From: a virus
IMG/VR virus record: IMGVR_UViG_3300009488_000019
Span: 5,128 to 69,127 of that record
Direction: 5' to 3' (one strand)
DNA: 64,000 nucleotides
Part shown: positions 32,101 to 59,188 of the stretch, one piece after another
How the letters are laid out: every line of letters starts with the position of its first letter
How positions within the stretch are numbered: position 1 is the stretch's first letter
Program-made: the position numbers and the translations under genes
Notes under the pieces: model-generated
The model's database searches: none
The model's input: the letters and a program-made list of their open reading frames with translations, nothing else
Told to the model about the DNA's origin: nothing

Positions 32101-35100
32101 GTCAGGTTGCGCAATAACGTTCAAAACATTTGCGGCTGTGACCGTGTCGGCCCCGCCTTCGTAATCTGTCAGATTCAAGACTTCATCATTATGCTCTGCT
32201 GTCCGGTTGAACGGATCGTATACCCGGTGGATCACATCTGACTTTCTCAGATGGTCAGTCACGTTATCAAATTTACCACCACCAATATCGAAGACCGTTT
32301 CACCGGCTCCGAAGTTATACTTGGAAAATAACGTGGGCATTTTATCCTTGTTTATGGACGTGTCTGCACTGGAGATATCCTGCGCAGCTTTCTCCCAGAG
32401 CGCCGGGTTGATCTTTAGGCGCTGAGCCTGTTTCGATTTTTCACCGACTACAATATTTGGAATGGTTAGTTTGCCATTACCAGCGCCACAATTTGCCTGA
32501 CACTGAGTATCCAGTTTACCATTAAAACATTTTGCTTCGTTCAAGCAGCAGGTTCTATTTCTTAGATTAGGTTCCTTTGCGATAATCTCTTTCACCGCTG
32601 TGGACTTGTAAGACATCGACTCGTAACCCGGTGGCGTGTTGGCTTTGTCACCATGAAATAAAGTGATGATCCCAATCTTAGAATCCTTCCCTAACTCCAC
32701 AAAGTGCTTTGGATTTTTGGCAACAGTTCGGACGTGGACATTCGGATATTTCTTAGCCAGCCTGTGAGCTATGCCGTGATCCATCCCGGTGCCTTCACTG
32801 TCGATTGAGACATTAATGGTAATGCCTGTATGTGCAAAGTCCTCAACGAACTCTGGCCGTTTTGTGATAGCCTTTATAGATAGGCCACGGAGTTTAGCTT
32901 GTTCGAGAAGTAGCTCAATCTGTACCCGGTGAGCCGACTTGATATAATCGGAGAAGCTGAACATACGCAGACCACCACGTTGATTGGCCTCAGCGACCAT
33001 AGCCTCTGAGAATACGTACTCGCCTTTGTTCTTACCCTTCGTGTGCCTTTTAAGAAGGTAGTCCGTATACGGAATGGCCGTGATCATGGTCTTGACCTTT
33101 TCGTAGTCTACCCGGCTTTTGGCTGCACCTTCATTATGCAGAATGACAGCGTTCCGTCTATTCTGTTCCACGTAGCAATATGAGCAGGGCACGTCAAGGC
33201 CTTCCTTCCGGGCCTGATCCATTAGGTTAATCCAGACAGATTGCTCTGTCAAATCCTTAAGCTCAACCTGACCTTGCTCGAACTGATTATGTAACCAGCC
33301 AGCAAACGCCTCAGTCTTCGGACAGATGTTGCCCGGATCATAACTGAAATGCGTTTTGTTATTTTTGGAGAAGCCCTGATTGGCTAAGTCTGCACCAGTG
33401 GGATCAACACCAAACAGATACCTGTCCCTGATATTCTTATCAGAGTAGAAATACTTATCGCTGACGATGTCCCTTTCACCAGTAGCAATATCCTCAAACA
33501 TAGATTGAACCTCAGTCTGCTCTGTCTTATATCCCTTGAAGCGGAGATAGATGGCTTTCATGACGTTCTTAATCTTGTTAAAGGCCTTGGTGAGATTCGA
33601 TGTTGGCGCACTCTTGCGGCCAAGGTTCCATTCAGCAAAGCTCTTTGCGAACCAGCGTTGCCAATCGGTAGGTTCCTTAACTTCCTTCGGTTTGGTTTTC
33701 AACCATTCATTGTATAACTGTTTGGCCTCGCCACGTTTCAGCAAACGTCTGGCAGCGAAGTATCCAAACTCCTCAAGGAAATGGCCAGCGTCACCATCCT
33801 TATATAAGGTAACGATCGTCTTGGCATCTTGTTTAAGATCACCCATCTTCTCAAGGCGCACCGATGCGGTACCGGCCTCATCGGAGGTCAGTACTTCAAA
33901 GTGTTCCCGGTATGCTTCGGGCATAGAGTCCAACATGGCCTGAGCGTAATTGAGAGCGTCCTCATTGGCCCCTGCCTTTTTCAGCCGTTGGATATCATCG
34001 GAGAATGTAACCTCCCCACCCTTCGCAAGCTGCTGCCGTCTGACAGACTTCTGCATGGTCTTGACAATACCGTCAAGCTGCACATCAGTCATGTTCGGAT
34101 TGAAACCCAGAGCCTTAGCTAACCGGCGCAGGAATCCCCGGACACGCATCTTGATAGGCGTACCCCGTTTCTTTTCAAACAGGTTAACCAGTACCTCTTC
34201 AGCGGCCAGTTCATCCGTTGCATAACCACCATCCCTAAAGGACTTGACCTCTGTGGGATATCTGGCTTTGATCATATCAGTGATCTGTTTAAAGTCAGCG
34301 CTCAGCTTACCAGCGGCTGCCAGATTCTGAAATGTATTATGCCCGGACTCGTGCCATAGAGTATCCAGCGCCTCTACAAAGTCTGTGTGCGCACCCGCAA
34401 TAATATAGGTTGTATTATCAGTGGGTGACCAGAATCCTTGTATAGCGCCTGAGCGTACCTCTGCGGTTTGTTCGGCTTTAGGCAAATCGCTTATCTGCTC
34501 GACAACGGTAACTTTACCAAGATTCAGCTTTTCCTTTTCCTTAATGCGTGCTTCGATCTTGGTCTTCAATTTTTTGGGGGCTTCGGCTTTATCCGTTAAC
34601 GGTTTAACGGGAACTCGCTTCTGACGTTGGCCGGGTAAATCAGCCGATTTGGTAACCCCGTATTTTGTTGTGGCCGCCTCGCTTGTGAGAAACCCATCAC
34701 CCTGACTGATAAACCCGCTGGTTGCTTTCTTCAATGCAATGGCTTCATTCTGCGCCAGCGTTAGGTCAGCCGTATTGATGATATCAAAATGAGACGATCC
34801 TTCCAGAACCGTACCATCAGGGAATTTGATAGCGGCCTTTAAGTCCTTCGGTGGGGCTTGAACTTTAGGAGCCTTCGGTGGGATACGCCTTTCAGCATCC
34901 CGCTTTGCTATCTGAATTTTGGTTAGACCAAGCTGCTTCTCTCTGGCTCTGGCTCTCGCACCTTTAAACCGCATCATCCGTTGTGGCTCTGGTTTCTTCT
35001 CTGCTGGTTTCTTAGCGGCTGGCTCCTCAACTTCATCAAACTCTGTGAACAGGTCACCAGTGGCTTCCTTAGAGACAGGCTCAAGGGTAGGGGCACCTTC

Positions 35101-36948
35101 CTTTTTTGCCGCTACTTCGGTTTTCTTGGCCTCTGTCTCTTCGGCTTCTTGGGCTTCCTTTATCTGTAGCTCTTGGAACTTCCGATTTTCGTCAGCATAT
35201 TTCTTGCCCTCTTCGGCTTGCTCCAAAGCACCAACACGATCCCGCACACGCTCAGCTAATGCATCGGCTGTAATCTGATACTCATAAGGTTTCTCTTTCA
35301 AGTCCTTATCATTTTTTAGATCATACTCAAGACTCTTCAGCTTTTTGATACTATCCTCTTCCGTGACCAATGCTTTCCGGGCATCGTTAATCGGTTTAGC
35401 ATCCAGCCTTCCAGACTCTTCAAATAGACCCTCAGTGGTTGATACCTTCTCAACGTACTGTGAGCGCTGTTGTGATCGGGCGACTCTTTGATCTTGCTCG
35501 AACTGTGCCGCTGCCTTTTGCTCCTGCTCAAGACGTGCCTCTTCCTTTGCGGCCACTGCTGCGGCCCTTTGGTTATTGATCTCTTTGACAGCAGCCAGAC
35601 GCTCTTGCTGTGTCTCTTCTGTTCTAATAGAAGTGGATCGTTCCTGATTGGAAGTATCTGTTGAGAGTTGCGTCCCTGACTCGACTTTGGTTATTACATC
35701 ATCATCGTCCACAAGTTCAGTTTCAGCTTCTGGATCAAAATCCTTTTTCTCAATCAGTGGATTCTTTGCCATAGCCAGTTGCTCAGGCGAAGGCTCCAGA
35801 ATATTCTTAACGGCTTTGACAGTCTGACCAGCAATCTGACCGGGAGCTTTAATAACGGCTGCCGCACCACCGGGGATAAGTCCACCGGCTGCACCAACTG
35901 AAAAACTCTCCCAACGTTTGGCCCATTGTTCACTGGACTTCAAACGTTCCACAATCTCCGTCATGGAGTCCTCTGCGTTTGCCTCTGGCATTTCAGCCAT
36001 AACATCAGCAACTACTTCCCACTCACCCTGTGCCAACTCTTCAATACCTTCTGCTGCCATATTCTGTAGGATCGCTCCACCCTTTTTTTGTATGATTGCA
36101 GGGATAGCCATTTTGGTTGCGGCTGTGGAGAAGACAGTCTTAAAGGCTTTGATACCGATTATGTTACCAGCTACCTCCAGCGCTGCGGCTGGCAATGAAT
36201 ATAGTCTGGCGGCTGCATCAGCGTCCGAAGCCTTGATACCTTCCTTCCGGTAATCAGTAAACTTCTGGCCATGCATCTGTACTGCACCAACAGCTAAACC
36301 CAGAACTGGATTTACAATGGTAGCAGCCATGATAGGCGCAGAACGGGTGAGTCCTTTTAGCGCCTTCTCGAAAAGGTTTGCTACTGGATTGGTGTATATA
36401 TCAGTTGCTTCTGTATCAGGGTATTGTTCGGATAGGTCGGTATAGTAATCCCTGAGCTTTTGGGAATGCTCTTGAGCAATGGCAATCCGATACGCATCTT
36501 TAATATGCTTCGGCGTTTCCATGCCCGTGCGTTCCTTATACTCATTCAGGAACCTACCATAGCGTTTACGTAGCGCTATGTTTCCCATAGGACTATCGGG
36601 GTCAATATTTAGGGGATCATTGGCCAACCGGACTTGAGGGTCTTCCTTCTCGTCCTGAAAGGTCTTCATCATATCATGTACGTCACGAGCCTCTTCTATA
36701 CCGGCCCGGCTACGCATGAAGTCTCCCACGGAGCCAACGACTTCTGCTTTAAGTTGTTTGCCAAGCTCTTTTGCTTTAGCAATCTGACCAACTGGTTTTG
36801 GTGCGTCCATCTGGTGATCACCCTCCTGCACTGCTGGCATTTGGGTTGCCTCTTCCGTTTCCTTGAAAGGATCAAAATCTATACGGACAAGATTCTCATC
36901 ATCCTCTTCTTCTGAAAACGGGTCGTATTCAATTCGTTCTAATGTCAT
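29164..36948 (-). CDS. giant polyvalent internal virion/ejection protein (LPD38-like C-terminus, MTase, HExxH)
   Basis: 2594 aa; HESGH, DIGGGKFD/ANVLNVI methyltransferase motifs, IPSPFEIG and N.DSFTG.PIVP LPD38-like motifs; last gene of the virion module. Confidence 0.75.
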   Translation of the reverse strand: MTLERIEYDPFSEEEDDENLVRIDFDPFKETEEATQMPAVQEGDHQMDAPKPVGQIAKAKELGKQLKAEVVGSVGDFMRSRAGIEEARDVHDMMKTFQDEKEDPQVRLANDPLNIDPDSPMGNIALRKRYGRFLNEYKERTGMETPKHIKDAYRIAIAQEHSQKLRDYYTDLSEQYPDTEATDIYTNPVANLFEKALKGLTRSAPIMAATIVNPVLGLAVGAVQMHGQKFTDYRKEGIKASDADAAARLYSLPAAALEVAGNIIGIKAFKTVFSTAATKMAIPAIIQKKGGAILQNMAAEGIEELAQGEWEVVADVMAEMPEANAEDSMTEIVERLKSSEQWAKRWESFSVGAAGGLIPGGAAAVIKAPGQIAGQTVKAVKNILEPSPEQLAMAKNPLIEKKDFDPEAETELVDDDDVITKVESGTQLSTDTSNQERSTSIRTEETQQERLAAVKEINNQRAAAVAAKEEARLEQEQKAAAQFEQDQRVARSQQRSQYVEKVSTTEGLFEESGRLDAKPINDARKALVTEEDSIKKLKSLEYDLKNDKDLKEKPYEYQITADALAERVRDRVGALEQAEEGKKYADENRKFQELQIKEAQEAEETEAKKTEVAAKKEGAPTLEPVSKEATGDLFTEFDEVEEPAAKKPAEKKPEPQRMMRFKGARARAREKQLGLTKIQIAKRDAERRIPPKAPKVQAPPKDLKAAIKFPDGTVLEGSSHFDIINTADLTLAQNEAIALKKATSGFISQGDGFLTSEAATTKYGVTKSADLPGQRQKRVPVKPLTDKAEAPKKLKTKIEARIKEKEKLNLGKVTVVEQISDLPKAEQTAEVRSGAIQGFWSPTDNTTYIIAGAHTDFVEALDTLWHESGHNTFQNLAAAGKLSADFKQITDMIKARYPTEVKSFRDGGYATDELAAEEVLVNLFEKKRGTPIKMRVRGFLRRLAKALGFNPNMTDVQLDGIVKTMQKSVRRQQLAKGGEVTFSDDIQRLKKAGANEDALNYAQAMLDSMPEAYREHFEVLTSDEAGTASVRLEKMGDLKQDAKTIVTLYKDGDAGHFLEEFGYFAARRLLKRGEAKQLYNEWLKTKPKEVKEPTDWQRWFAKSFAEWNLGRKSAPTSNLTKAFNKIKNVMKAIYLRFKGYKTEQTEVQSMFEDIATGERDIVSDKYFYSDKNIRDRYLFGVDPTGADLANQGFSKNNKTHFSYDPGNICPKTEAFAGWLHNQFEQGQVELKDLTEQSVWINLMDQARKEGLDVPCSYCYVEQNRRNAVILHNEGAAKSRVDYEKVKTMITAIPYTDYLLKRHTKGKNKGEYVFSEAMVAEANQRGGLRMFSFSDYIKSAHRVQIELLLEQAKLRGLSIKAITKRPEFVEDFAHTGITINVSIDSEGTGMDHGIAHRLAKKYPNVHVRTVAKNPKHFVELGKDSKIGIITLFHGDKANTPPGYESMSYKSTAVKEIIAKEPNLRNRTCCLNEAKCFNGKLDTQCQANCGAGNGKLTIPNIVVGEKSKQAQRLKINPALWEKAAQDISSADTSINKDKMPTLFSKYNFGAGETVFDIGGGKFDNVTDHLRKSDVIHRVYDPFNRTAEHNDEVLNLTDYEGGADTVTAANVLNVIAQPDIRQRVIQQAADIVKPNGRAIFGIYEGDGSGLGKETTKGFQNNMKTADYLDEVQAIFPNAAKKGNFIEASPEVALATVVKTADTAIGEGTIVQPVASDEVDLGRTPPDLSVSAEERSQRFSRKDLRDRVTPDQWKLIQQIGIKPTPFRDKIRKFLETLMDHIGTGLADPLYKIGKLQQKAGELVIGEDAYMDLNMLSNFESIFRSFLEDGRLIWKNNWVQYNREDSSKGGLLKVFENLGDDAELFLLWQQAKSAQEMLNKGRSQLFGNNEAGELIDDQEMIDTILESTKELYAANKQLWNDSETRLKEYNQSVLDILESASIIDGETRSTWERENYMPFFRTMTDFLDGDIKMLHPGATGAKIRGMKRLKGSRKNVGDPMSNLLNAYSSSIHNALRNVARVKALKLLKKFDLAERTDRTFGKGIVQIKVRGKDQFWQVEDKLTFNAIMHLDDISNGTFSRIVNAPKRWLTYAVTQNPAFKLANWFRDSITTATLEKEFIPIIDSMRGMYHAGMNTEIMKELRSTGGAFSGAYHQRDIMAQTERGVAKLRKRAKKGKRGWGNPLKYLDMYNKLGEMSENAARVGLYAKKRKKGQTAQEAGYAAKDLLDFHRSGKWGVTRFFVAMVPFLNARIQGLYKLGREGTNTKKGKKHLANFYLTSAAIGMASLLNHLWNEDDDRYKELTNDEKWYYFHIFDVPGLGHVRIPSPFEIGTLAGKMPVELFKSLFNQRFAGDSNLWDFAKFAFMDMFAFNPIPQFLKPWIHQYANRDSFTGAPIVPRGKELVDADEQFGPRTSVLAKGIGKVAELAGLPEIAQSPLRIEKFFADYFSYLSALTFSGVDIAFKAATSAPEDPFLYDTLGYVSGLSRFVRFDRPARRSRYEEKFYDMLLEGEKAHRTLNLLKKEGRRDEAREYRVEKRDLLRQRKSMLNYRKRLKRFKTQENLILRSGKSRDQKNKEIDALLIKRKALLKKAIDKYLAAGG

Positions 36949-42610: not shown

Positions 42611-43501
42611 TTAATCTTTTGTTGCAATAACACCATTGGCTGCCTCTGGCCGGTACGTGGCTGGAGTCTGACTTGCGCCACCATCAGCCGTACCACTCAA
42701 TCCAGTTGCACCATGATTATGCGCATCCCCGCTACCTGCGGCAAGGGCTGTATGTGTATGTGCGCCTTCCGTACTTACGTGGCCACTTTGATCAATGGGA
42801 TGAGAATCACCCTCGCCACCCTCAACTGCTGCGTTGGTAGACGAGCCGGGATTTCCTGTTCGCCGGGACAGATCATGATTATGGCCGCCGTTTGAGTTGG
42901 TTGTATGTGTATGGCTGGGCATTTCAGCTTCAGTTAATATGTGATCAGGGGTTGTATGCGTATGGTCATTCATAGCATGAACGTGAGTCCCTTGATCCCA
43001 ATCACCAACTACTTGCCCACCGGCTACGTTGTAGTCGTCTGATCCACCCTTTATAGCAAGGACAACATCAGCAACACCAGCATCATACGTCCACCCATCA
43101 GGCACGTCTCCATCATCACAATAGAAGTACATCTTGGTTCCGACCGGAGCATAGAGTTGAATCTGATGTGAAACAATTTCGGTGATCATGTCTTCAATAA
43201 TCTGAGCGCATGGCCGTAGACTGACAATATCATTTGCAGTGAAGGCTTGTGCTGCACCTGTTGAAGAGTCTTGATTACGGACGATCACATCGAACACGTC
43301 AGCGGTACGAGTTGTGACTTTTACAATTTCCCAATTACCATCTGCCTTTTGAAGAGTGACGTAGAAGTAATTGTCACCAGCGGTTGACGGAAACTCTGCA
43401 CCTTCACCAACCTTCATTGTTAGCGTAAGCGCAGCAGCGGATATGCCAGCGTCTAATTGCCCGGTGGCATTGTTTGTTATTTGAACGGCTAAGTCGGCCA
43501 T
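42611..43501 (-). CDS. tail fibre protein
   Basis: N-terminal NNA...EIVKVT..R attachment domain, collar-like PVG..PDGW, repeated HxH motifs. Confidence 0.8.
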   Translation of the reverse strand: MADLAVQITNNATGQLDAGISAAALTLTMKVGEGAEFPSTAGDNYFYVTLQKADGNWEIVKVTTRTADVFDVIVRNQDSSTGAAQAFTANDIVSLRPCAQIIEDMITEIVSHQIQLYAPVGTKMYFYCDDGDVPDGWTYDAGVADVVLAIKGGSDDYNVAGGQVVGDWDQGTHVHAMNDHTHTTPDHILTEAEMPSHTHTTNSNGGHNHDLSRRTGNPGSSTNAAVEGGEGDSHPIDQSGHVSTEGAHTHTALAAGSGDAHNHGATGLSGTADGGASQTPATYRPEAANGVIATKD

Positions 43502-50085: not shown

Positions 50086-51627
50086 TTAGTAACCGGCATC
50101 ACTATCTGCTGGCATATTAGTGGGTGTCTCAGTATGCTTGGCCTTGAGCTTCTTACGGCCCTTAGCTGTTCTCCCCCCTGTCAATTCCATGACCGCATAC
50201 TGTAAAGCATCATGAACGTGTGAGTAAATATTCTTATCTGCTTTTTCGTGGAACTTTGGATCGGAGTTCCCTGCTGAAATGGCAACACGCTTCTTTTCAA
50301 AATGGTACTCACTGATAAATCCTTTTCGTAATACCTCACAAGTTGGATTTAAAATGAAGCCCTTTAATTTACGCAAAACGTGTACCACAGATTCCTTACG
50401 CTTTGTCCAGTTATTTGTCAGCCCGGTACGATACGGTAGGCCAGCCGCCTTAATGACTTCACACGCTGAACGCATATCATTGTCTGACCGTTTCGTGGCT
50501 GAAGGATCAACAATCAATTGGTACGCAAAGCCTTTGTAGTTATTCTTGAGATACGGTTTAAGATGGTCTTCACAGAACTTCTCAATTGAACAGTCCTCTG
50601 TTACCAACTCGTCCAGTACCAGAACTTCTCCCATCGGCGTAAGCTGCGTTATACAGGCAGCGGGTGTTAGGCCCAAGTCCATTCCGATTACCAGTGGCAC
50701 ACCCTTAAGAGGTTTGTGAATATTCTTTGCTGTATGAATATTATCATCAAACTCTGGGTACACTGGCCGCCCACTCTGCATCAGACCATAGTTGTTCAGG
50801 ATCATAATGTTGACCCAATCTGGTCTGGCTCCGTATACCTGATCTTGGTAGTAATCGTCAGGTACGTTTCTAACATTATCGGCTTCGTAGTTGATTATAT
50901 AATGGTTCCCAGCAACATCAACAATTGGCTCCTTAGAGTCAATCCTTGGATCGTTGTTGGCTACCAGAAGCAGTGCTGACGGCTGATGGTAGAAACCATG
51001 CTTCGGTGGCTTCTCTTCTTCTGCAATAGTGTAAAGCCAATGCGAAGTATCAACGGAGTTGTAATCACAAATAATAAATGGTGATACAGGTCTTAATGAT
51101 TCATCACCCGGCTCTTGTGGGAACCGGTTAATACGAGACTTGGACATCTGATGGATGCCTCTTGGAATCTCAGCACACTCATTGATATGCATGCCAGTTA
51201 ACTCCAAGGATTGTAATTTGTTGACATCGTCCTCACGGTCGAGAGCGATAAAGACCAACTCAATGTCAACCAGCGATTCCCCGTCAGGGTGCGGGAACCG
51301 TAGCTCTCCACGGATAGGTGTATCGTACACTATATTGACCATGCCCTTAAACCAGTTCTTCCATGATTTAATGACGGTCGATTTCAACGCCGGGTACGAT
51401 GCTCGTATGATTGCGTACCGACTGAACCGTGTGTTGTCATACCAAACCTTTTGCTTCATGGCGTTTAAGACGATCTGCCAAATACAACCAGATGATTTTC
51501 CAGAGCCTACTGGCCCCCGGCAGAATAAGTACTTCCGATCATCTGCATGTATCTGTGCGAACGTTGGTATGCTGCTATAGTTTAGTTCCATGATTCTTTT
51601 TAAATCTCCCCCCAAGTTGATATTCAC
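50086..51627 (-). CDS. terL: terminase large subunit
   Basis: Walker A GPVGSGKS, Walker B INE, nuclease GMDLGLTPA, DP, HVHDALQY; alternative start at 51591. Confidence 0.93.
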   Translation of the reverse strand: MNINLGGDLKRIMELNYSSIPTFAQIHADDRKYLFCRGPVGSGKSSGCIWQIVLNAMKQKVWYDNTRFSRYAIIRASYPALKSTVIKSWKNWFKGMVNIVYDTPIRGELRFPHPDGESLVDIELVFIALDREDDVNKLQSLELTGMHINECAEIPRGIHQMSKSRINRFPQEPGDESLRPVSPFIICDYNSVDTSHWLYTIAEEEKPPKHGFYHQPSALLLVANNDPRIDSKEPIVDVAGNHYIINYEADNVRNVPDDYYQDQVYGARPDWVNIMILNNYGLMQSGRPVYPEFDDNIHTAKNIHKPLKGVPLVIGMDLGLTPAACITQLTPMGEVLVLDELVTEDCSIEKFCEDHLKPYLKNNYKGFAYQLIVDPSATKRSDNDMRSACEVIKAAGLPYRTGLTNNWTKRKESVVHVLRKLKGFILNPTCEVLRKGFISEYHFEKKRVAISAGNSDPKFHEKADKNIYSHVHDALQYAVMELTGGRTAKGRKKLKAKHTETPTNMPADSDAGY

Positions 51628-51773
51628 GTCCTTCGATTTCTAAATGCTCTTCTCGCTCACGAGTAATTCCTTCGCAGTCATGTTTAAAACCCACCTTTAA
51701 GTTACGGTGACAGTCAGCTATACACCGACCACTACCATTTAACTTCGCAAAGGCGCAATGATCCCGCATGATC

Positions 51774-52133
51774 TTAAAACACTCTTGCATACTGAAAGTA
51801 GTAATTGTGCTTTGCGCCATTGTCCAAGGTGACTTCAAATATAACCGTATGCTTCTGACCGCTCTTGTAAGCTGCGGTAGACGGATACTCGAAGTAAACA
51901 GAAATGATATAATCAGAGATTACGATGGATTTTGAATCGTTAATCAATTCAGAAGTTGTCTCTGTCTGATCAGCGATTGCGTCTTCCTTATCGACTTTGC
52001 CAAGATAACTTTTGACGGTTGCTGAGGAAAGTACCGTACCTGTTGGTAGGGCTTCTTCCATGTCAAAATTATGTGGGCCGTAATCATCACTGTAATATCT
52101 GACCTCTATTGTTTTACGTTCAAAATCTGGCAT
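51774..52133 (-). CDS. small beta-rich putative structural protein
   Basis: beta-strand pattern; overlaps the rSAM stop codon. Confidence 0.5.
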   Translation of the reverse strand: MPDFERKTIEVRYYSDDYGPHNFDMEEALPTGTVLSSATVKSYLGKVDKEDAIADQTETTSELINDSKSIVISDYIISVYFEYPSTAAYKSGQKHTVIFEVTLDNGAKHNYYFQYARVF

Positions 52134-53559
52134 TTTCTATCATCCTTATCGTTTTGTTTAAAATGTCGTTTGAGAGTTCACGCTGTTTTTCATCACCCTC
52201 TGGGTTAGCCAATATCCGTTTACTCAGGTTCAAGAACTTTGTAAGTATTTCCCGATCCGCAAAACGGTTCTGAATAGGTCGGGCCTGAGCCTCTGTACTA
52301 CCCGTGTAGTTTGTATGGTCGCATACGCAAGCCCTTTCAGAGCTTCGGTCTAAATGGATGATCTCCCTATCGGTTCCTTCTGAATAACACATGTTAAAAC
52401 AAACGCAGCCTTTAGGCTTATGCTGTTGAGGACTCTGCATTAAACTCACACCAGCTTCTTTGGCTTTGGCCCGGAGCAATAACCCCGCTTCGTGCTGGAC
52501 TTTGGTGAACGCACATTCAACTTTAGGCTGTTTACGTATGTCACCCGTAAAGTCGTAATTGGTTGCATAGCACCCGCCGTTGCAGCCCGATTTACCCGCA
52601 CCCCAAATCTCGCACTTCTGACAGCTTGTGCAGGGATCGTTGATAAAGTCGAACTCGTCAAGGAAGTCCCGGTTTATCCATTCGAACGAGTCTCCCTTTG
52701 GTTGAGCGATACACGTTGGTGACGCTGCTTTTTCGTTAGCGGATAACCCGTGTTTGTTAAATCGGTGACACGGAAAACCATACCCGTCTACTGACCATGA
52801 CATATAATGAGTCCCGGCACCGCATGGATTATACTTCGGCCCACCGTTACCAATGGCTTCATCATTAAGGTGTTTGATTGTAGCAGGTAACCCTTTCTTA
52901 ACCCGCTCGACTTGGTACTCTACAGTCAACGCAAGTTGCTCTGCCGCAATTTTAAGATTCTCAGGTGTCCAATTAGACTCATAGACCGGAGAATAAATTG
53001 CTTCCTGTAATCCCAAATCTTCAAACATAAATTTTATAGATTTAAAAAAGTCTTTAACGTGATCTGCATGCAGCGACATACGCACCTTTGTAGACGGTAC
53101 AACCGCTAAGGCCAGACGCACATTTTCAACTACCTTATCCCATGAGCCAGTACCGTTTTTAAAGCAACGGTGAGCGTCATGTTGATCTCTTAGGCCATCC
53201 ATAGATATCATAAACAGTGACTTATGCTCCAGACACCACTTCACTCTGTCTGGTGTGTAAAGAACACCGTTTGTGGTACCACCAAAAGAAACCTCTCGAC
53301 CTAACTCTTTGGCCTTGGCCTCAGCATAGTACGTCAACTCTTGTAGGGTATCCCATCGGATTAATGGCTCCCCACCCCACCATGTGACACTCAGAGGCCT
53401 GTCAGTGGACGTTTGAGGCATCCACCAATCAAGTATCCGCTTTCCCATGTCGATTGTGAGATGCTTCGATTTATGCTGCGAATGTGTGAAACAATAATCA
53501 CACGCTAAGTTACAACCCTCTGTTAAATCAAGGGTGCAGGATGATAATCCCTCCATCAT
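52120..53559 (-). CDS. radical SAM/SPASM-domain enzyme (peptide maturase-like)
   Basis: CNLACDYC, WGGEPL, TTNG, ISMDG..HD..R, CGAG..GYGFPCHRF, CQKC....CNGGC...C. Confidence 0.93.
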   Translation of the reverse strand: MMEGLSSCTLDLTEGCNLACDYCFTHSQHKSKHLTIDMGKRILDWWMPQTSTDRPLSVTWWGGEPLIRWDTLQELTYYAEAKAKELGREVSFGGTTNGVLYTPDRVKWCLEHKSLFMISMDGLRDQHDAHRCFKNGTGSWDKVVENVRLALAVVPSTKVRMSLHADHVKDFFKSIKFMFEDLGLQEAIYSPVYESNWTPENLKIAAEQLALTVEYQVERVKKGLPATIKHLNDEAIGNGGPKYNPCGAGTHYMSWSVDGYGFPCHRFNKHGLSANEKAASPTCIAQPKGDSFEWINRDFLDEFDFINDPCTSCQKCEIWGAGKSGCNGGCYATNYDFTGDIRKQPKVECAFTKVQHEAGLLLRAKAKEAGVSLMQSPQQHKPKGCVCFNMCYSEGTDREIIHLDRSSERACVCDHTNYTGSTEAQARPIQNRFADREILTKFLNLSKRILANPEGDEKQRELSNDILNKTIRMIENARF

Positions 53560-53567
53560 ATATCTCC

Positions 53568-54455
53568 TTACTTAATTTTTCGTATTGCCAGCCAACGGCC
53601 AGTTGGTAGCTGGTAGCTGAGTTTTGAGTATGATAAACCCTTTAACCATTTCGGTGTATATTTAAAAGTGGGTTCAGTTTTGTCGTCTAAAAAATCCAAG
53701 GCTGCCTTTTTGACTTTAGCCTTTTCCTCTTTGGTAAAATCATCGGCACCATCAATGAGAAGCCGGGAGCTACTTACAGGCACACCATAGTCCTCATCTA
53801 TGTACGGGTCAATTAAAAGATAGTCTTCATACTTGGAATAAGTTTTATAAATGTATTCCTTGGCCATGTTCATATACAAATCTCTTTTTCCAGAAGCCTT
53901 AATTTTATAATCAACTGCACCGGAAAGAGCCGCAATCAAATGCGATCGCAAAAGACCAACAATCATTTTATTATGAAAAATATCTAATTCATCATCAAGC
54001 ATAATCTTATCTGCTTTCTCCACAATTTTATCAAACGGTTTGTAAAGCGCATCAAAGTCTAAATTATGTAGAGGGAGCATGACTGCTGCGCCCATTCGAT
54101 CTTTATCATTATGCCACGGTGTGAACTCTTCCAGACTCATTTCTAAAACGTAGTCAATTCCGTGGTTGGTACACCACTCTAAAAGGGCATCTTGCTCATA
54201 GGGCTTGAGGTAGTTTGGGTGAAAGCTATCTCCACCATCTAACCAACCTGACAGGGTAAAGAGTTCGAGAATTGGCATAAATATCTTTACGACTATTTTT
54301 GCGTCTGGCCGCAAGCGTTTAATCTCTGATATCATCCACGCATGCCCAGCGTGTAGGTATGATACATTCTTGCCCTGCAATCCAAAGTGAACGATCGGAT
54401 TGTTAGCATGATCAGCGATTAGATTATATTCCTGTTCCCGATTAATGACTTCCAT
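53568..54455 (-). CDS. PanC-like HIGH-superfamily adenylating ligase
   Basis: LHAGH, IVVKIF.P, D.L....GIDYV...EEF.P, SGKRD, GVPVSS parallel the pantothenate synthetase motifs LHxGH, VVSIFVNP, GVD, FGEKD, GLAxSSRN. Confidence 0.6.
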   Translation of the reverse strand: MEVINREQEYNLIADHANNPIVHFGLQGKNVSYLHAGHAWMISEIKRLRPDAKIVVKIFMPILELFTLSGWLDGGDSFHPNYLKPYEQDALLEWCTNHGIDYVLEMSLEEFTPWHNDKDRMGAAVMLPLHNLDFDALYKPFDKIVEKADKIMLDDELDIFHNKMIVGLLRSHLIAALSGAVDYKIKASGKRDLYMNMAKEYIYKTYSKYEDYLLIDPYIDEDYGVPVSSSRLLIDGADDFTKEEKAKVKKAALDFLDDKTEPTFKYTPKWLKGLSYSKLSYQLPTGRWLAIRKIK

Positions 54456-54456
54456 T

Positions 54457-55488
54457 TTACCATCTTCCAAAAGTGAAGCCCAAAGCGATATAGGTTATGA
54501 CAAAGGCCATTCCGATTGCGGTACCAAGTTTGTCGCCTTTGAACCATTCCTTCGCACAGGCCCAATAGTTTTGAGTGTTTAGTTGAATCCCAATGAAAAA
54601 GGACGGTAGCCCAATTATGGGGTGATTAATCAACAGCCAGATATTAGCAAGCTGCCATACACCAGCAATCAACATTGCTCTCCAGTATCCGATCTTGGTA
54701 CCTAACCAAGCACCGGGCCAACGAAGTAGCGCTGTGCTTAGGGCTGCAATACCAAAAGCGTAAATGGCTTCCATCTTGGTCATACCAAAAGTCATGAATG
54801 CCGGGATCACCTTTGTGATACAGAGATAATACACGCATCCGATGATCGTATGCCAAGCTGTCCAGTACCACCACTTCGGAGTCTTGAGCAATTCCGCAAC
54901 CTTCGTTTTACTCCATGATAGAAGTTTGAACGAATGATCTTTAACTGCGAACGAAGCCCATGTACCAAAGAAGGCAAAGAGTGCGGCTGCTGCTGCTGCG
55001 AACATACTAAAGCCAGCGGCTTTGACTACAGCGGCCAGTAGCAAATAGAAAAGGGCACTTCCGAAAGTCTTGGCTGATGCTTGTGGTGCAACTCGTAATG
55101 AGTCAATCTCACTATCCTTATTCTTTAGCGGCACTGCAAACGGCAGTATCTTAACTGCTGCGGCTGCGAGTCCCAGACCGATTCCAAACAGCCACATGTT
55201 AAAGGCTGCTCCAAGAATACCTAAGACACCCGCAAAGGTGGCAGCGGCTATTAGGTAATGTGCTTTCACACGATCGCTCATAAAGCCAAGTGCCAGAACT
55301 GATAAGGAAACGGTTGTAAAGAAAATCCCCATTCCTTGTTTCAAGTTCATTTCCACCACACCTGATTTTGCTATGGCAGAAAATCCTCGCTGAATCATAT
55401 AGACAATTAGCACCATGCCTGATAGCGGTAGCCAATCATAACTGATGCTTTTCAATTTGTTAAATTTATCTTTAATCCAATTCCACAC
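54457..55488 (-). CDS. MFS-like multi-pass membrane transporter
   Basis: about 10-11 hydrophobic helices; GFMSDR and GAWLGTKIG MFS loop motifs; EWF..DKLGTA.G. Confidence 0.75.
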   Translation of the reverse strand: MWNWIKDKFNKLKSISYDWLPLSGMVLIVYMIQRGFSAIAKSGVVEMNLKQGMGIFFTTVSLSVLALGFMSDRVKAHYLIAAATFAGVLGILGAAFNMWLFGIGLGLAAAAVKILPFAVPLKNKDSEIDSLRVAPQASAKTFGSALFYLLLAAVVKAAGFSMFAAAAAALFAFFGTWASFAVKDHSFKLLSWSKTKVAELLKTPKWWYWTAWHTIIGCVYYLCITKVIPAFMTFGMTKMEAIYAFGIAALSTALLRWPGAWLGTKIGYWRAMLIAGVWQLANIWLLINHPIIGLPSFFIGIQLNTQNYWACAKEWFKGDKLGTAIGMAFVITYIALGFTFGRW

Positions 55489-55519
55489 CTTAGTTTCCCT
55501 CCTAACACTAATTTAAAAT

Positions 55520-56374
55520 TTATGTCCAAGGATACTCATAAGCTGCAACGTGACATTGAACACATACATCGGTAAAGCACGTCACATCACAAGAACACGC
55601 ACCCTCATTGTTACAAACTGAATCACACGTACAGTCAACATTTCCATCACAAGATGAATCACAGCTACAAGCTGAGTATCCAAAACAGGCGCTATTGCAG
55701 GAGCAATTTACGTTTCCGTAACATGTATTATTGCATGAGCAAGCCGAATGACCCTGACATGAAAAGTCACAATTACATGAATCAGCCTTACACGATTGAC
55801 TGTTACAAGCGCCGTTGCATGAGCATGCCCCATATCCATGACAGGTATTATTGCATGAGCAATTTACGTTTCCGTAGCAAGCGCTATTGCACGAGCATGC
55901 TGAATAACCAAAGCACGAAGCATTACAAGTACAGTCAACATTCCCATCACAGGAGGCATCACAATTACAGACATATCCATCACATGTAGCATCACAGCCG
56001 CAGGTATCAGTATCACAGTTATGGCATTGATAGCACTTGCCATTCTGTATATAGTTCATGTTGTCTCTGACTTCTTCAACCAGCGGATCACCCCCATCTG
56101 TCATTGGGATGCTTCCAAATATATACCCCGCTGCCGCTGTCCATGTGAATGTACCCTCACCAATTAAGGTCTTGAGAGCATCTAAAGCATCTTGCATTTC
56201 TGTGAAGAGAAGCGCATCTATCCGTGTATTCGTTGTTGGCTCTTCATCCGTGAAGGTTGTTAACGAAATACCGTAAGCGGCTTCCCATGCATTAATGGCA
56301 TCTTGCAGTTCGTCTGCATGAACTGGCTTGAATGTCACCGCATAAGAAGGGTCAGTCCATGTTTGTTGAGCCAT
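55520..56374 (-). CDS. Cys-rich repeat protein (42 Cys), putative rSAM substrate with a virion-like N-terminus
   Basis: 12 CxC[DN]xxC units bounded by CYQCH and CVQCH; N-terminal duplicated (W/F)TD....(H/F).E(L/M)QDA motif. Confidence 0.85.
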   Translation of the reverse strand: MAQQTWTDPSYAVTFKPVHADELQDAINAWEAAYGISLTTFTDEEPTTNTRIDALLFTEMQDALDALKTLIGEGTFTWTAAAGYIFGSIPMTDGGDPLVEEVRDNMNYIQNGKCYQCHNCDTDTCGCDATCDGYVCNCDASCDGNVDCTCNASCFGYSACSCNSACYGNVNCSCNNTCHGYGACSCNGACNSQSCKADSCNCDFSCQGHSACSCNNTCYGNVNCSCNSACFGYSACSCDSSCDGNVDCTCDSVCNNEGACSCDVTCFTDVCVQCHVAAYEYPWT

Positions 56375-56375
56375 T

Positions 56376-57161
56376 TTATTTTACCTTTACCCAATGCCTT
56401 CCGTTAACCTCAACCTCATTTCCCGGTGGCCCCCAGATGATGTTTGGTTCTTTGCCAATGTAAACGGCCACAATTCTATCTGGATGAATAATCTTTTCAT
56501 ACCACCGCATCTTTGTAAGCTCACCATGCTTATTGCTGGTCAGCACCGTACCGGGGTGATAACGCTTATTGTCTATGTGAGCAAGCACCCATCCCGCAAC
56601 TGCGAGAGGCACCTGTCTTTGGCTTTTTCGTTGGCCGACTGCCATGCCGTACACGTCAGAGGAGATACCTAAGATTCCTTCCTGACAGCGTTTATCGGCT
56701 TTCATTGCGCCTATCCAAGACGCTTTATAGCAATAGCCGGGCTGTGCATCAGGGCCAGCCAATTTAATAAAATCGGCATAGTCAGAGAGATACGCATTAT
56801 AAACACGGGTTGCATAAAAATACCCATTGTAACCCAGCACGGTTGTACCGGCAGGGGAACTCTGATTGTATTCAAGCGTACCGGCTGATCCAATTTTAAA
56901 TGTCTCTGATCCCGTTTCTGCTAATCGTAACTTGTCAATCAGTATCCAACGTTTGGAGCCGGGGTTGTTGTCCGGGGCGATAATGCCGGGGCTTGATTCA
57001 CCCGCACCAGAAGCCGCATCCAGATTATGCAGGAATAGCTCATCACCGTCAAACGTAAAACTTTTGTAATTGTCAAGTAGAATAGCTCCGTCTATCCCAT
57101 CCAGATCATCCGTGGTTCCACCAAGAAGACCTACAGCGGGGTAAAAGTTTTTGTCTGGCAT
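56376..57161 (-). CDS. tail-associated protein with a C-terminal autocleaving chaperone (peptidase G2-like) domain
   Basis: SDYADF...GISSD.YG..VG...VPLAVAGWV...G..LTS..G. Confidence 0.55.
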   Translation of the reverse strand: MPDKNFYPAVGLLGGTTDDLDGIDGAILLDNYKSFTFDGDELFLHNLDAASGAGESSPGIIAPDNNPGSKRWILIDKLRLAETGSETFKIGSAGTLEYNQSSPAGTTVLGYNGYFYATRVYNAYLSDYADFIKLAGPDAQPGYCYKASWIGAMKADKRCQEGILGISSDVYGMAVGQRKSQRQVPLAVAGWVLAHIDNKRYHPGTVLTSNKHGELTKMRWYEKIIHPDRIVAVYIGKEPNIIWGPPGNEVEVNGRHWVKVK

Positions 57162-57172
57162 AACTTACACCT

Positions 57173-57655
57173 TTAAGCGAAACGTACAGTTATTCCGCAC
57201 AGATCATTGTTGTGGTTGACCGCAGCAGCGCCTACTGTCCGTCTGACAAAAATACGAACCGCAGCAGAGGCAGCAATGTCACCACAATCTAAAGCGGCAC
57301 CCTCAGTGGTCGGATGGGTAAAGGTCACAACTGGTGCGTCCGGGGCTGTGTCTTCATCTGCCAGTTCCTGCGTAGCTGTAGCGTCAATACCCACATCAAT
57401 TGCGGTATCGCCTGAAGCAGTTTCATCATCTATCCACAGGGTGACATCATCAGCTTGATCGGCACCGGAGTTATAGATATCAAACGCCCGGTACTCAATG
57501 TCGCCGGGTGTAGCCTCATCTTCGTCCACATGATCAAATAGATTGTTCATGACTGTTCCTGAGATTTCCACGGAACTCATGGTACCACCTAAAGATGCAT
57601 CTGGGTCAGCGTTTGCGCCTCCACCGGTTAGTCTAAATTCTATTACAGCAGCCAT
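57173..57655 (-). CDS. putative structural protein
   Basis: acidic; SLGG..S, NLFD.V...E...G..EYR motif seen in phage virion genes. Confidence 0.6.
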   Translation of the reverse strand: MAAVIEFRLTGGGANADPDASLGGTMSSVEISGTVMNNLFDHVDEDEATPGDIEYRAFDIYNSGADQADDVTLWIDDETASGDTAIDVGIDATATQELADEDTAPDAPVVTFTHPTTEGAALDCGDIAASAAVRIFVRRTVGAAAVNHNNDLCGITVRFA

Positions 57656-58446
57656 TAAATTACCTCACTTGTATGGTTATGTTTTGTTGTTACAAACTCA
57701 GTGTCTACCGGATGGGCTTTGATATCTGTCTCTACCGGAGTCGCACTGATTGAAAAGTCAACTGGTTTTACTGTATGTGTAGTTATTGGCAATGTTGAAT
57801 TAAATGATTTGAATTGAAAAATCAAAGGATGCGCATCAATTGTAAAAAGTAATGGATTCACTTTGACTAAAGTAATTGGCTCATACTGTACCCCAATCAC
57901 TGTCCACGAACTATCAAAATCTGCAAGATTGTATAACTTCCAACTGGAGTCGAACGCAGCAAGGTTAAAAATCTTCCAGCTAAAATCTTGCCCTGTCGAA
58001 TTAAAGATTTTCCATGACGAATTAAACGAATCTAAATTATAAATTTTCCAACTCGAATTGAATGAGTCAAGATTAAATATCTTCCAACTGGAATTAAACG
58101 AGTCAAGATTAAATATCTTCCAGCTTGAATTGAAAGCATTTAAGTTATAGATTTTCCAAGCCGCATCGAACGAATCAACATTAAAGATTTTCCATGCAGA
58201 GTTAAAAGAATCTAAATTATAAATCTTCCAAGATGAATCGAATGTGTTGGTATTAAAAATCTTCCAAGCTGAATCAAATCCAGCCGCAGCACGTATCTGC
58301 CATGAGGAGTCAAATGAATCTACGTTAAATATTTTCCAACTTGAGTCAAATGCACTCCATTTATAAAGGCCATACCAATGAACCGTGGCCCCAATCAGAG
58401 GCTCAGTCCACTTCACAGTAGCCCCTGATTTCCAATATACTGACAT
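57655..58446 (-). CDS. 12-aa Trp/Phe tandem-repeat protein
   Basis: 13 copies of F[DN]SSWKI[FY]NLDS. Confidence 0.8.
   Translation of the reverse strand: MSVYWKSGATVKWTEPLIGATVHWYGLYKWSAFDSSWKIFNVDSFDSSWQIRAAAGFDSAWKIFNTNTFDSSWKIYNLDSFNSAWKIFNVDSFDAAWKIYNLNAFNSSWKIFNLDSFNSSWKIFNLDSFNSSWKIYNLDSFNSSWKIFNSTGQDFSWKIFNLAAFDSSWKLYNLADFDSSWTVIGVQYEPITLVKVNPLLFTIDAHPLIFQFKSFNSTLPITTHTVKPVDFSISATPVETDIKAHPVDTEFVTTKHNHTSEVI
57904..58350 (-). repeat. 36-bp coding tandem repeat, 13 units
   Basis: synonymously diverged units encoding F[DN]SSWKIFNLDS. Confidence 0.85.
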
Positions 58447-58457
58447 GATTTACCCCC

Positions 58458-58736
58458 TTACAGGATTGAGCTTAGTGAACCTACAAAAATTCCACCAGCG
58501 AAAAGTGCTACACCAATCAGAATTGGTTTGATGTTGGCTTTGATTTTGTTCACAAAACCTTCGATCTCTTCTTTGGCATCATCAAGTTTCTCACCAAGAG
58601 AGTCTTTAATTGAGTCAAGCTCAATTTCCAAATCCACTTTGCGTTCCCGCAGTTTGGCTTCAATGTCTTCCAGAGAGTCCTCAACGGAGTCCTTGGCTTC
58701 TGCCATTTTGTCTTTGATTTCTTCAATTGTACTCAT
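58458..58736 (-). CDS. coiled-coil protein with a C-terminal membrane anchor
   Basis: charged amphipathic helix plus ILIGVALFAGGIFVG; AAGGAG RBS. Confidence 0.65.
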   Translation of the reverse strand: MSTIEEIKDKMAEAKDSVEDSLEDIEAKLRERKVDLEIELDSIKDSLGEKLDDAKEEIEGFVNKIKANIKPILIGVALFAGGIFVGSLSSIL

Positions 58737-58766
58737 TGCGTTTTCTCCTTAAGGTACTGGTTAGTA

Positions 58767-58844
58767 TGGAGGGCCGGGAAGGATTTGAACCTTCGACCCG
58801 TAGGTTAACAGCCTACTGCTCTGACCTGACTGAGCTACCGACCC
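58767..58844 (-). tRNA. tRNA-Asn(GTT)
   Basis: cloverleaf, loop CTGTTAA, CCA. Confidence 0.92.
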
Positions 58845-58847
58845 TTC

Positions 58848-58922
58848 TGGTAGCAGCGGAAAGACTTGAACTTTCGGCCTGACGATTATCGGTCGTCTGC
58901 TCTACCACTGAGCTACGCTGCT
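58848..58922 (-). tRNA. tRNA-Ile(GAT)
   Basis: cloverleaf, loop CCGATAA (C33), CCA. Confidence 0.88.
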
Positions 58923-58925
58923 ATG

Positions 58926-59014
58926 TGGCGGCAGGTGCATGACTCGAACATGCAAGGGTTTAACCCCTGAACACTTTAGCAAAGTGCGTGACTCTCCCAT
59001 CTGTCTAACCTGCC
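58926..59014 (-). tRNA. tRNA-Ser(GCT)
   Basis: loop TTGCTAA, long variable arm, G73, CCA. Confidence 0.88.
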
Positions 59015-59019
59015 TAAAA

Positions 59020-59104
59020 TGGTGGGGGTAGAAGGAGTCGAACCTTCACGGATTGCTCCGGGGGATTCTAAATCCCCTGCGTCTACCAGTTTCACCATAC
59101 CCCC
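59020..59104 (-). tRNA. tRNA-Leu(TAG)
   Basis: loop TTTAGAA, variable arm, A73, CCA. Confidence 0.92.
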
Positions 59105-59109
59105 ATAAT

Positions 59110-59188
59110 TGGGGTGACAGACCGGATTCGCACCGGCATCCCTCCGGTTCACAGCCGAAGGTATTAACTACTTATTATGACTGCCACC
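59110..59188 (-). tRNA. tRNA-His(GTG)
   Basis: loop CTGTGAA, G-1:C73, CCA. Confidence 0.85.

Follow-up and report, generated by a model that had tools for sequence, protein, structure and literature searches.

A radical SAM/SPASM enzyme encoded beside a cysteine-repeat protein in phages: a candidate maturation system for a tail appendage

In Methanococcus voltae, the enzyme CrpC makes ranthionine links in the 28.8-kDa cysteine-repeat protein CrpA, as shown by mass spectrometry (Dieter et al. 2026, PMC13692751), and the arrangement of seven SPASM cysteines is read in the text of that paper as leaving an open iron for a cysteine of the substrate. The same text describes QhpD as a radical S-adenosylmethionine (SAM)/SPASM enzyme that forms intra-protein Cys-Asp/Glu thioethers on a structural subunit and not on a natural product (PMC13692751). 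Here we describe a phage locus in which a radical SAM/SPASM enzyme is encoded together with a 284-aa cysteine-repeat protein, a membrane protein of the major facilitator superfamily (MFS) fold and a ligase-like protein related to the pantothenate synthetase PanC. The window analysed is a stretch of 64,000 nucleotides, bases 5128-69127 of the virus record IMGVR_UViG_3300009488_000019, which has a total length of 69,127 bp and a completeness of 100% according to the CheckV estimate. We give a probability of roughly 55% to the reading that the enzyme puts thioether crosslinks into the repeat domain of a tail appendage and that the MFS protein and the ligase form an optional decorating module. The four genes are as follows.

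56374-55520, minus strand: cysteine-repeat protein, 284 aa
55488-54457, minus strand: MFS-fold membrane protein, 343 aa
54470-53568, minus strand: PanC-like protein with an HxGH motif, 300 aa with a TTG start
53559-52120, minus strand: radical SAM/SPASM enzyme, 479 aa

A sequence-only reading of this DNA had placed four co-oriented genes at 52120-56374, and all four open reading frames (ORFs) indeed lie there on the minus strand. They are separated by spacers of 31 nt, 1 nt (with the TTG start, a 14-nt overlap instead) and 8 nt, and the run is bounded by a tail-fibre-like gene and the terminase gene.

CrpA/CrpC is the closest precedent. As far as the paper's text describes that system, both pairs consist of a radical SAM/SPASM enzyme with seven SPASM cysteines and a protein-sized substrate (about 29 kDa in the case of CrpA, putative in the case of the phage), and in both the substrate combines an N-terminal domain free of cysteine with a C-terminal array of short cysteine repeats; CrpA was modelled, with low confidence, as a beta-helix. 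The differences are equally clear. CrpC and CrpA form an archaeal cellular system, the repeat of CrpA is 17 aa long and contains CxxQ/D whereas that of the phage protein is 12 aa long and contains CxC[ND]xxC, and CrpC engages the N-terminus of its substrate through a RiPP recognition element (RRE; RiPP, a peptide made on the ribosome and then modified post-translationally), a domain that the phage enzyme does not have. Against the model of the CrpC family (TIGR04463) the phage enzyme reaches only 76.9 bits, the cut-off being 525. Neither a tail-protein context nor a pair of PanC-like and MFS genes is described for CrpC/CrpA in the text of PMC13692751, and the word 'phage' is absent from that text, the supplements that list CrpA homologues being a separate part of the publication.

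Three further systems invite comparison. The best-scoring curated family for the phage enzyme is PapB (NF047865), the maturase of PapA (freyrasin). PapB forms several Cys-to-Asp thioethers in a repeated motif. Unlike PapA, the phage substrate would be a 284-aa protein and not a short peptide that carries a leader, and its context is phage-structural; unlike PapB, the phage enzyme carries an extra C-terminal extension of 110 aa. The closest solved structure is that of CteB (TIGR03974; PDB 5WGG/5WHY), a thioether former whose auxiliary cluster binds a cysteine of the substrate, SCIFF, a six-cysteine peptide about 45 aa long. CteB starts with an RRE of about 100 aa that has no counterpart in the phage enzyme. 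The third system, QhpD/QhpC (TIGR03906), differs in that QhpC receives three crosslinks and has no long repeat array, in that an RRE and a leader are used, and in that QhpC is a subunit of a periplasmic enzyme. The CXXX-repeat system (target TIGR04114, maturase TIGR04115, PF27846 tSAM_targ_Cxxx_rpt) is a database-level concept of cysteine-repeat targets of radical SAM enzymes. TIGR04114, a repeat model of 18 positions that requires 20 bits, failed to match anywhere in the full virus record at E<=1, and our literature search found no paper containing the CXXX-repeat or PF27846 terms. In Atlas, the clusters nearest to the cysteine-repeat protein are viral (scores 0.85-0.88) and carry PF27846 in 13-53% of their members, which we take as a lead only.

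The enzyme and its cysteine-repeat partner

The enzyme has a Pfam Radical_SAM domain (PF04055) that scores above threshold, with 57 bits against a cut-off of 29.5, and Fer4_12 was also matched. In an alignment of 22 homologues, the three cysteines of the CX3CX2C motif (C16, C20 and C23) are invariant, GGEP is present, and seven cysteines of the SPASM region (residues 246, 264, 313, 316, 326, 330 and 349) are likewise invariant. This bears out the full SPASM cysteine set ascribed to the enzyme from sequence; the Pfam SPASM model was not among the matches of the window enzyme. A search returned 543 homologues at E<=1e-3, of which the top hundred share 35-55% identity with the enzyme; INPHARED contains no candidate that exceeds 30% identity to it. 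The public gene call for it, P0001, covers 405 aa, 85% of the 479-aa ORF. The 479-aa ORF is the right one, given that alignments with homologues start at residue 2-9 and that CX3CX2C occupies residues 16-23. The best matches among the NCBIfam maturase families were these.

PapB, NF047865: E 2.7e-58, 197.8 bits against a cut-off of 340, enzyme residues 5-343 aligned to 2-329 of 330 model positions
SCIFF maturase, TIGR03974: E 1.9e-42, 145.7 bits against a cut-off of 425
QhpD, TIGR03906: E 6.2e-42, 143.8 bits against a cut-off of 453
nif11-peptide maturase: E 5e-38, 131 bits against a cut-off of 518.7
CXXX-repeat maturase, TIGR04115: E 1.5e-35, 123.4 bits against a cut-off of 350

Weaker matches were obtained with RumMC (6.7e-23, a sactipeptide enzyme) and YhhB (2.8e-16, a cyclophane enzyme). 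The nearness to thioether-forming SPASM enzymes that had been proposed from the sequence is thus upheld by PapB, SCIFF and QhpD on the side of the families, and we looked for clustering with enzymes of an unrelated function and found none. CteB was the best solved relative both by sequence (E 3.2e-29, enzyme residues 8-365 aligned to chain residues 99-451) and by fold: when the AlphaFold2 model of the enzyme (mean predicted local distance difference test score, pLDDT, 78.8) was compared with solved structures by Foldseek, CteB was found at E 3.8e-22 with a template modelling (TM) score of 0.70 and a root-mean-square deviation of 2.8 A, the alignment covering the SPASM region. The next fold neighbours were anSME (5.1e-16) and ChlB. 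Since the alignment begins only at residue 99 of CteB, the enzyme lacks the N-terminal leader-binding RRE domain.

Past its SPASM domain, the enzyme continues into the extension of about 110 aa, of which segment 377-427 is modelled as disordered (pLDDT <50) and is followed by two helices. C385, C387, N389, C391, Y392, C411 and C413 are near-invariant in this extension among the 22 homologues. Residues 385-392 (CVCFNMCY) form a substrate-like CxCxxxCY unit with the spacing and the following tyrosine of the repeats described below, and a further CxC stands at 411-413; residues 385-413 correspond to window positions 52321-52407 on the minus strand. CxCxxxC occurs within the last 140 residues of 32 of the 41 unique full-length enzyme homologues in the loci. 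This unit in the enzyme's tail could be a pseudo-substrate, a templating element, a site of self-modification or a metal site.

The putative substrate contains 42 cysteines (14.8%), all inside residues 114-274. CxC[DN]xxC occurs in it exactly 12 times, the number already given by the sequence-only reading, mostly at a spacing of 12 residues. An N-terminal helical domain of about 110 aa precedes the repeat array, and the protein ends in YEYPWT. Its family comprises 19 matches in which the N-domain is conserved, the number of repeats varies and the end reads Y[ER]YPW[TS]. We defined as Cys-dense any ORF with at least 10 cysteines within a 60-aa stretch; the 284-aa protein is the only one among the 454 ORFs of at least 40 aa in the window. 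One 12-aa unit recurs through 45 unique Cys-dense proteins collected from the loci described below, and 17 of these have the Y[ER]YPW[TS]-type end. With 27 of the 45 being at least 200 aa long, they are proteins and not peptides. The consensus of the repeat family is C-[ST]-C-[ND]-x-T-C-Y-G-Y-S-A. In the 102 exactly 12-spaced units drawn from the 45 proteins, positions 1, 3 and 7 are cysteine in 100% each, position 2 is serine (37%) or threonine (32%), position 4 is asparagine (60%), aspartate (23%) or tyrosine (11%), position 5 is variable, and the remaining positions favour threonine (position 6, 62%), tyrosine (position 8, 78%), glycine (position 9, 67%), tyrosine (position 10, 72%), serine (position 11, 43%) and alanine (position 12, 43%). 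A spacing of 11 residues is likewise common (70 cases). Tandem Repeats Finder reported no array in the cysteine-repeat gene, indicating that the repeats have diverged at the DNA level. The repeat region had no match among PDB chains at E<=10 in a sequence search, the whole protein had none in NCBIfam at E<=0.1 (hmmscan), and ten of its relatives matched no relevant NCBIfam family. AlphaFold2, run with 15 sequences, gave three N-terminal helices and short strands with a 12-aa periodicity; prediction of a homotrimer returned a score of 0.00, which is no verdict and speaks neither for nor against such an assembly.

Could the enzyme act on these repeats by another chemistry, such as a sactionine link (sulfur to alpha-carbon), a carbon-carbon cyclophane at tyrosine, formylglycine formation as in anSME, or epimerisation? 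We regard this as quite unlikely. The enzyme's position below all curated cut-offs leaves room for it, anSME and ChlB are the next structural neighbours, repeat positions 8 and 10 show strong conservation of tyrosine, and RumMC and YhhB appear among the weaker matches. However, the top-scoring full-length matches are all enzymes that join sulfur to a beta- or gamma-carbon, CteB is clearly the best structure, ahead of anSME (E 3.8e-22 versus 5.1e-16), and three invariant cysteines per repeat beside Asn, Asp or Thr fit the known ranthionine motifs of PapB, NxxcB, CteB and QhpD.

The pairing of enzyme and repeat protein is conserved. Pattern scans derived from the enzyme alignment yielded 9 viral loci, 72 from metagenomes and 2 from a prokaryote collection with one genome per species. 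ORFs were called in all loci and searched with hidden Markov models (HMMs) of the enzyme, the cysteine-protein family and the PanC-like family. The 77 enzyme-bearing loci collapsed to 62 non-redundant groups at 95% identity; one locus with the feature sufficed for its group to be scored as positive, and flanks were measured on its longest locus.

Flanks of at least 3 kb on both sides: 16 groups, Cys-dense ORF in 14, PanC-like gene in 7
Flanks of at least 1.5 kb on both sides: 24 groups, Cys-dense ORF in 18, PanC-like gene in 12
No flank requirement: 62 groups, Cys-dense ORF in 33, PanC-like gene in 25

Among all 62 groups, many contigs break off only a few hundred bases away from the enzyme gene. 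Co-occurrence with cysteine-repeat proteins, which the sequence-only reading had named as a test of its proposal, stands at 14 of 16 well-flanked loci. With redundant loci counted, 49 of 50 Cys-dense ORFs lie on the strand of the enzyme gene, the distance to it being under 100 bp for 15 of them, and the linkage persists at 32-49% enzyme identity. The ORFs of the window, with 1 Cys-dense case in 454, serve as the control. Two or more radical SAM and cysteine-repeat genes per cluster are present in L004, L005, L009, L027, L029 and L070. One locus, L002, has no Cys-dense ORF, and its upstream side is cut after the PanC-like gene. A scan of viral contigs with the single enzyme sequence found nothing, whereas the alignment-based scan gave the 9 viral loci; the reverse scan with an alignment of the cysteine protein re-found only the L003 and L004 contigs. 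In the one-genome-per-species prokaryote collection the enzyme family is almost absent, the pattern-limited scan giving two short contigs of metagenome-assembled genomes. We take the module to be real and conserved, and it is apparently restricted to phages.

This linkage also bears on the possibility that the repeats are not substrates at all but a metal-binding or disulfide-braced solenoid, the enzyme, ligase and MFS protein acting together on a small molecule or a nucleic acid. The 12-residue period, with cysteines six residues apart, recalls disulfide-braced beta-helices such as that of the beetle antifreeze protein, and the presence of an MFS protein and a ligase suggests the handling of a small molecule. 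On the other hand, disulfides are in general not expected in the cytoplasm, the tight, same-strand and often abutting linkage would be hard to account for over 32-49% identity, and it is kept where the PanC-like and MFS genes are lacking, a PanC-like gene being absent from 7 of the 14 well-flanked loci in which a Cys-dense ORF is found. Phage radical SAM enzymes with a part in DNA hypermodification do exist (PMC8989533), but the enzyme studied here matches peptide and protein maturases and not nucleotide enzymes. We rejected a DNA-modification radical SAM enzyme on these NCBIfam matches, and regard the whole alternative as very unlikely.

In three homologous radical SAM genes we noticed intein-like insertions, one each in L062:5924-8287 and L076:6980-9517 and two in L073:849-3717. 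They sit at conserved cysteines of the radical SAM/SPASM motifs, and some contain endonuclease-like segments; they were judged by eye from the sequence and from split HMM alignments.

The link to phage tails

In relatives of the window protein the repeat is fused to tail domains. The 556-aa repeat protein of L038 (5285-6955) has a Phage Tail Collar domain (PF07484) at residues 96-151 (E 1.4e-15, 57.4 bits against a cut-off of 24), matches 14 PHROG tail families and carries about 360 aa of repeats after the collar domain. The protein encoded at 2429-3964 of L022 has repeats at residues 18-140 and a tail-fibre region at 383-464 (phrog_8469, 1.7e-9), and phrog_8469 is also matched by the window's own tail fibre. 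In L005, the first 60-70 residues of a 621-aa repeat protein are shared with two neighbouring paralogues and with the product of L009 3707-4426, which matches a PHROG tail protein.

The position of the genes points in the same direction. As had been read from the sequence, the four genes lie in the late (virion) arm, with the terminase and an SU10-type portal downstream and the head protein and a tail fibre further on, and the substrate gene follows tail-like genes: longer family members of p261, the protein encoded directly upstream, match tail-fibre PHROGs (L023:3-1220, 4.9e-25; L016:526-2298, 5e-13). Homologues of p261 stand directly upstream of the cysteine-repeat gene in five non-redundant loci (L004/L032, L016, L017, L023 and L030), and in a sixth, L074, upstream of the radical SAM gene that precedes the cysteine-repeat gene. 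It is possible that p261 is a partner of the cysteine-repeat protein.

Several observations weigh against our reading. The window's cysteine-repeat protein has no recognisable tail domain of its own (Pfam, PHROGs, INPHARED), and its N-domain had no match in 50,697 phage records of INPHARED (tblastn) or in PHROGs. The model of the protein has a mean pLDDT of 53, too weak for naming a fold, and this low-confidence model had no match in BFVD at E<=1e-3 (Foldseek). Tail domains were found in only 2 of the 10 large relatives tested (L038 and L022), and short stand-alone repeat proteins of 97-165 aa, which are more like RiPP precursors, occur in relatives. A Cys-dense ORF is missing from two of the 16 well-flanked loci (L006 and L054, the latter standing for the L007 group) and also from L008, L037 and L057, which are flanked less fully. 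The PanC-like gene is present in only 7 of the 16 well-flanked loci, and its product lacks two glutamine motifs of PanC. Finally, the enzyme falls under the curated cut-off of every named maturase family, so that its chemistry is extrapolated.

The four genes are what the sequence-only reading took them for, and its interpretation is supported, with some qualifications. The N-terminus of 110 aa, said to resemble a fibre-anchoring domain, could not be tied to any known anchoring domain in INPHARED, PHROGs or BFVD; in Atlas, the structure of residues 1-109 aligns to the N-termini of viral multidomain proteins of the Ig/fn3 type with a query TM of only 0.32-0.34, a lead and nothing beyond it. The proposal of a virion appendage is supported indirectly, by the fusions in L038 and L022 and by the tail-fibre matches of the p261 family, and is left without a tail domain in the window protein itself. 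The proposed RiPP-like layout holds as far as substrate and maturase are present, but an RRE is missing, no protease family was found among the neighbouring genes (Pfam, PHROG, NCBIfam), and the MFS gene is tied to the PanC-like gene. With neither RRE nor protease, the locus resembles a system of protein maturation and not a classical RiPP cluster.

The same enzyme and substrate might nevertheless yield a product that is not part of the virion, namely a released or intracellular RiPP-like molecule directed at competitors, manipulating the host or binding metal, with the MFS protein serving in export or immunity. Repeat proteins without an extra domain, encoded at L005 4655-4948 (97 aa) and L009 496-894 (132 aa) and in L062 and L040, would suit such a product, as would the window protein's N-domain, which carries no tail annotation. 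We nonetheless hold it to be unlikely, because L038 and L022 have the repeat joined to domains of the tail-collar and tail-fibre type, the genes lie inside structural modules beside tail-fibre genes, and neither a protease nor a peptide exporter is present. From general knowledge, a folded protein of 284 aa could not be exported by an MFS protein, which moreover tracks the PanC-like gene, and in hydropathy analysis the cysteine-repeat protein has no hydrophobic segment, no lysis or secretion signal being seen. In favour of such a product, metal binding has been suggested for the archaeal protein by the authors of the CrpA study (PMC13692751).

According to the preferred reading, the 284-aa protein would be a structural protein of the fibre or appendage type whose C-terminal cysteine repeats are the substrate of the enzyme. 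By analogy with PapB, CteB, QhpD and CrpC, the enzyme would cleave SAM and take a side-chain hydrogen from an acceptor residue, a candidate being the conserved Asn/Asp of repeat position 4 and another the Thr of position 6. The acceptor carbon would then be bonded to the sulfur of a cysteine that the open iron of the first auxiliary cluster holds in place, and the step would be repeated along the array in the cytoplasm, before or during assembly. Because a leader-binding RRE is lacking, we presume that the substrate is recognised through the enzyme's C-terminal extension with its one substrate-like repeat, through the YxYPW[TS] end of the substrate, or through both. Phage tails assemble in the cytoplasm, a reducing compartment that does not allow disulfides to form. 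The thioether bridges made there would be insensitive to redox conditions and would staple the repeat domain. Where the MFS gene and the ligase gene are present, the MFS protein probably brings in a small molecule, to be coupled by the ATP-dependent ligase to an amine or carboxylate that may belong to the same protein. The gene identities, the conserved linkage and the joining of the repeat to tail domains in relatives are shown by the computation, and the thioether chemistry, the acceptor residue, the location in the virion and the part played by the ligase pair are inferred.

Covalent stabilisation of virions is otherwise known in autocatalytic form, as in the isopeptide chainmail of the HK97 capsid, or as based on disulfides. 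If our reading is true, an enzyme-made, redox-proof thioether staple in a tail protein would represent a new kind of virion maturation step. It would extend RiPP chemistry from small secreted peptides to viral structural proteins and give a function to one of many orphan phage radical SAM genes; in our literature search, no description came up of a cysteine-repeat tail or virion protein that is paired with a radical SAM enzyme of a phage. An enzyme without RRE that acts on a simple 12-residue unit could also serve the stapling of designed repeat proteins. A bolder version, which we offer as speculation and consider improbable, is that many uncultured phages carry a tail-appendage repeat domain welded by tens of thioethers, made by a leaderless enzyme that is guided by the repeat in its own disordered tail, and that in a subset of them, this phage included, the appendage is also decorated with a small molecule by the MFS protein and the ligase. 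In that case a virion protein would for the first time be seen to be crosslinked covalently by an enzyme, one that depends on radical SAM chemistry.

The PanC-like ligase and the MFS protein

For the HxGH protein, the ATG at 54455 gives 295 aa, and close homologues begin there, so this is likely the true start. The protein alone had no match in Pfam, NCBIfam or PHROG. A profile search of 1.84 billion representatives returned a family of 96 relatives, all of about 250-310 aa. A profile built from 53 of these sequences matched solved pantothenate synthetases (3n8h, E 1.6e-15; 3mxt, 2.4e-14; 2ejc, 1.8e-12), which substantiates the HIGH-motif, PanC-like ligase of the sequence-only reading. The match to 3n8h spans positions 1-258 of 282 and is thus nearly full-length, and 10 of the 53 family members matched the Pfam model Pantoate_ligase (PF02569) on their own. 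In the 53-sequence alignment G42 is invariant and H40 and H43 are at least 90% conserved, and the HxGH, KD and SS(S/R) motifs line up with the ATP site of PanC. Two glutamine motifs of PanC, the Gln of NPxQF and the QQ after KD, are absent from the window protein and from the family consensus. In PanC these residues bind pantoate. We rejected a true pantothenate synthetase as improbable, the motifs not being kept in the family profile. The protein is probably an adenylate-forming ligase of the PanC fold with a substrate other than that of PanC. What sets its gene apart from panC is a setting that is always phage-structural or one of maturation, together with its pairing to an MFS gene. In L004, two PanC-like relatives of 340 aa without HxGH were also seen.

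Pfam MFS_1 scored 19.2 bits on the membrane protein (E 6e-4; cut-off 33.4), with an alignment that reaches from model position 38 to 343 of 347 and spans nearly the whole model. Its hydropathy profile shows about eight segments, and 343 aa is short for a full MFS protein. Comparison with MFS_1 clusters in Atlas gave a feature score of 0.98 and structural TM values of 0.82-0.85; an MFS fold agrees with the MFS-like transporter proposed earlier. Homologues were found in 7 loci and lie directly upstream of the PanC-like gene in all 7, which shows that the MFS protein and the ligase make up a sub-module of their own. The MFS protein as an exporter of the product was rejected, as it tracks the PanC-like gene.

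Genome setting

Minus-strand genes run unbroken from an array of tRNA genes through the structural module. The features around the four genes are the following.

58767-60864, minus strand: 12 tRNA genes in an array that immediately precedes the structural operon
58736-58458, minus strand: membrane-anchored protein, 92 aa
58446-57655, minus strand: 263-aa protein with FDSSWKIFN repeats
57655-57173, minus strand: 160-aa protein, phrog_13135
57161-56376, minus strand: p261, tail-fibre family, directly upstream of the cysteine-repeat gene
52133-51774, minus strand: p119, 119 aa, between enzyme and terminase
51627-50086, minus strand: terminase large subunit
50074-47954, minus strand: SU10-type portal
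Past the portal, same arm: major head protein, structural proteins, tail fibre, internal virion protein and a 2594-aa protein
42611-43501: the window's own tail fibre, phrog_8469

No family match was found for p119 in Pfam, PHROG or NCBIfam. Its homologues come after the radical SAM gene in L002 and L064, and its membership of the module is uncertain. A promoter and terminator scan of 51500-59000 gave counts not above those of shuffled sequences, so the limits of the operon are not defined by it.

Some further features of the record were noted. GC skew and coding strand flip at about 28 kb, where the plus-strand left arm and the minus-strand structural arm converge. In the other arm, a tRNA-Tyr of 93 nt was called at 4244-4336 on the plus strand; its anticodon, ATA, is odd, and the call could be spurious or include an intron. 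The structural arm ends with the 2594-aa ORF (29164-36948, minus strand), whose matches are confined to PHROGs without an assigned function (phrog_18222, 2e-59). The 263-aa protein, encoded three genes upstream of the cysteine-repeat gene, consists of about a dozen units of 12-13 aa, and its DNA has a tandem period of 36 bp at 57999-58242 with 72% matches.

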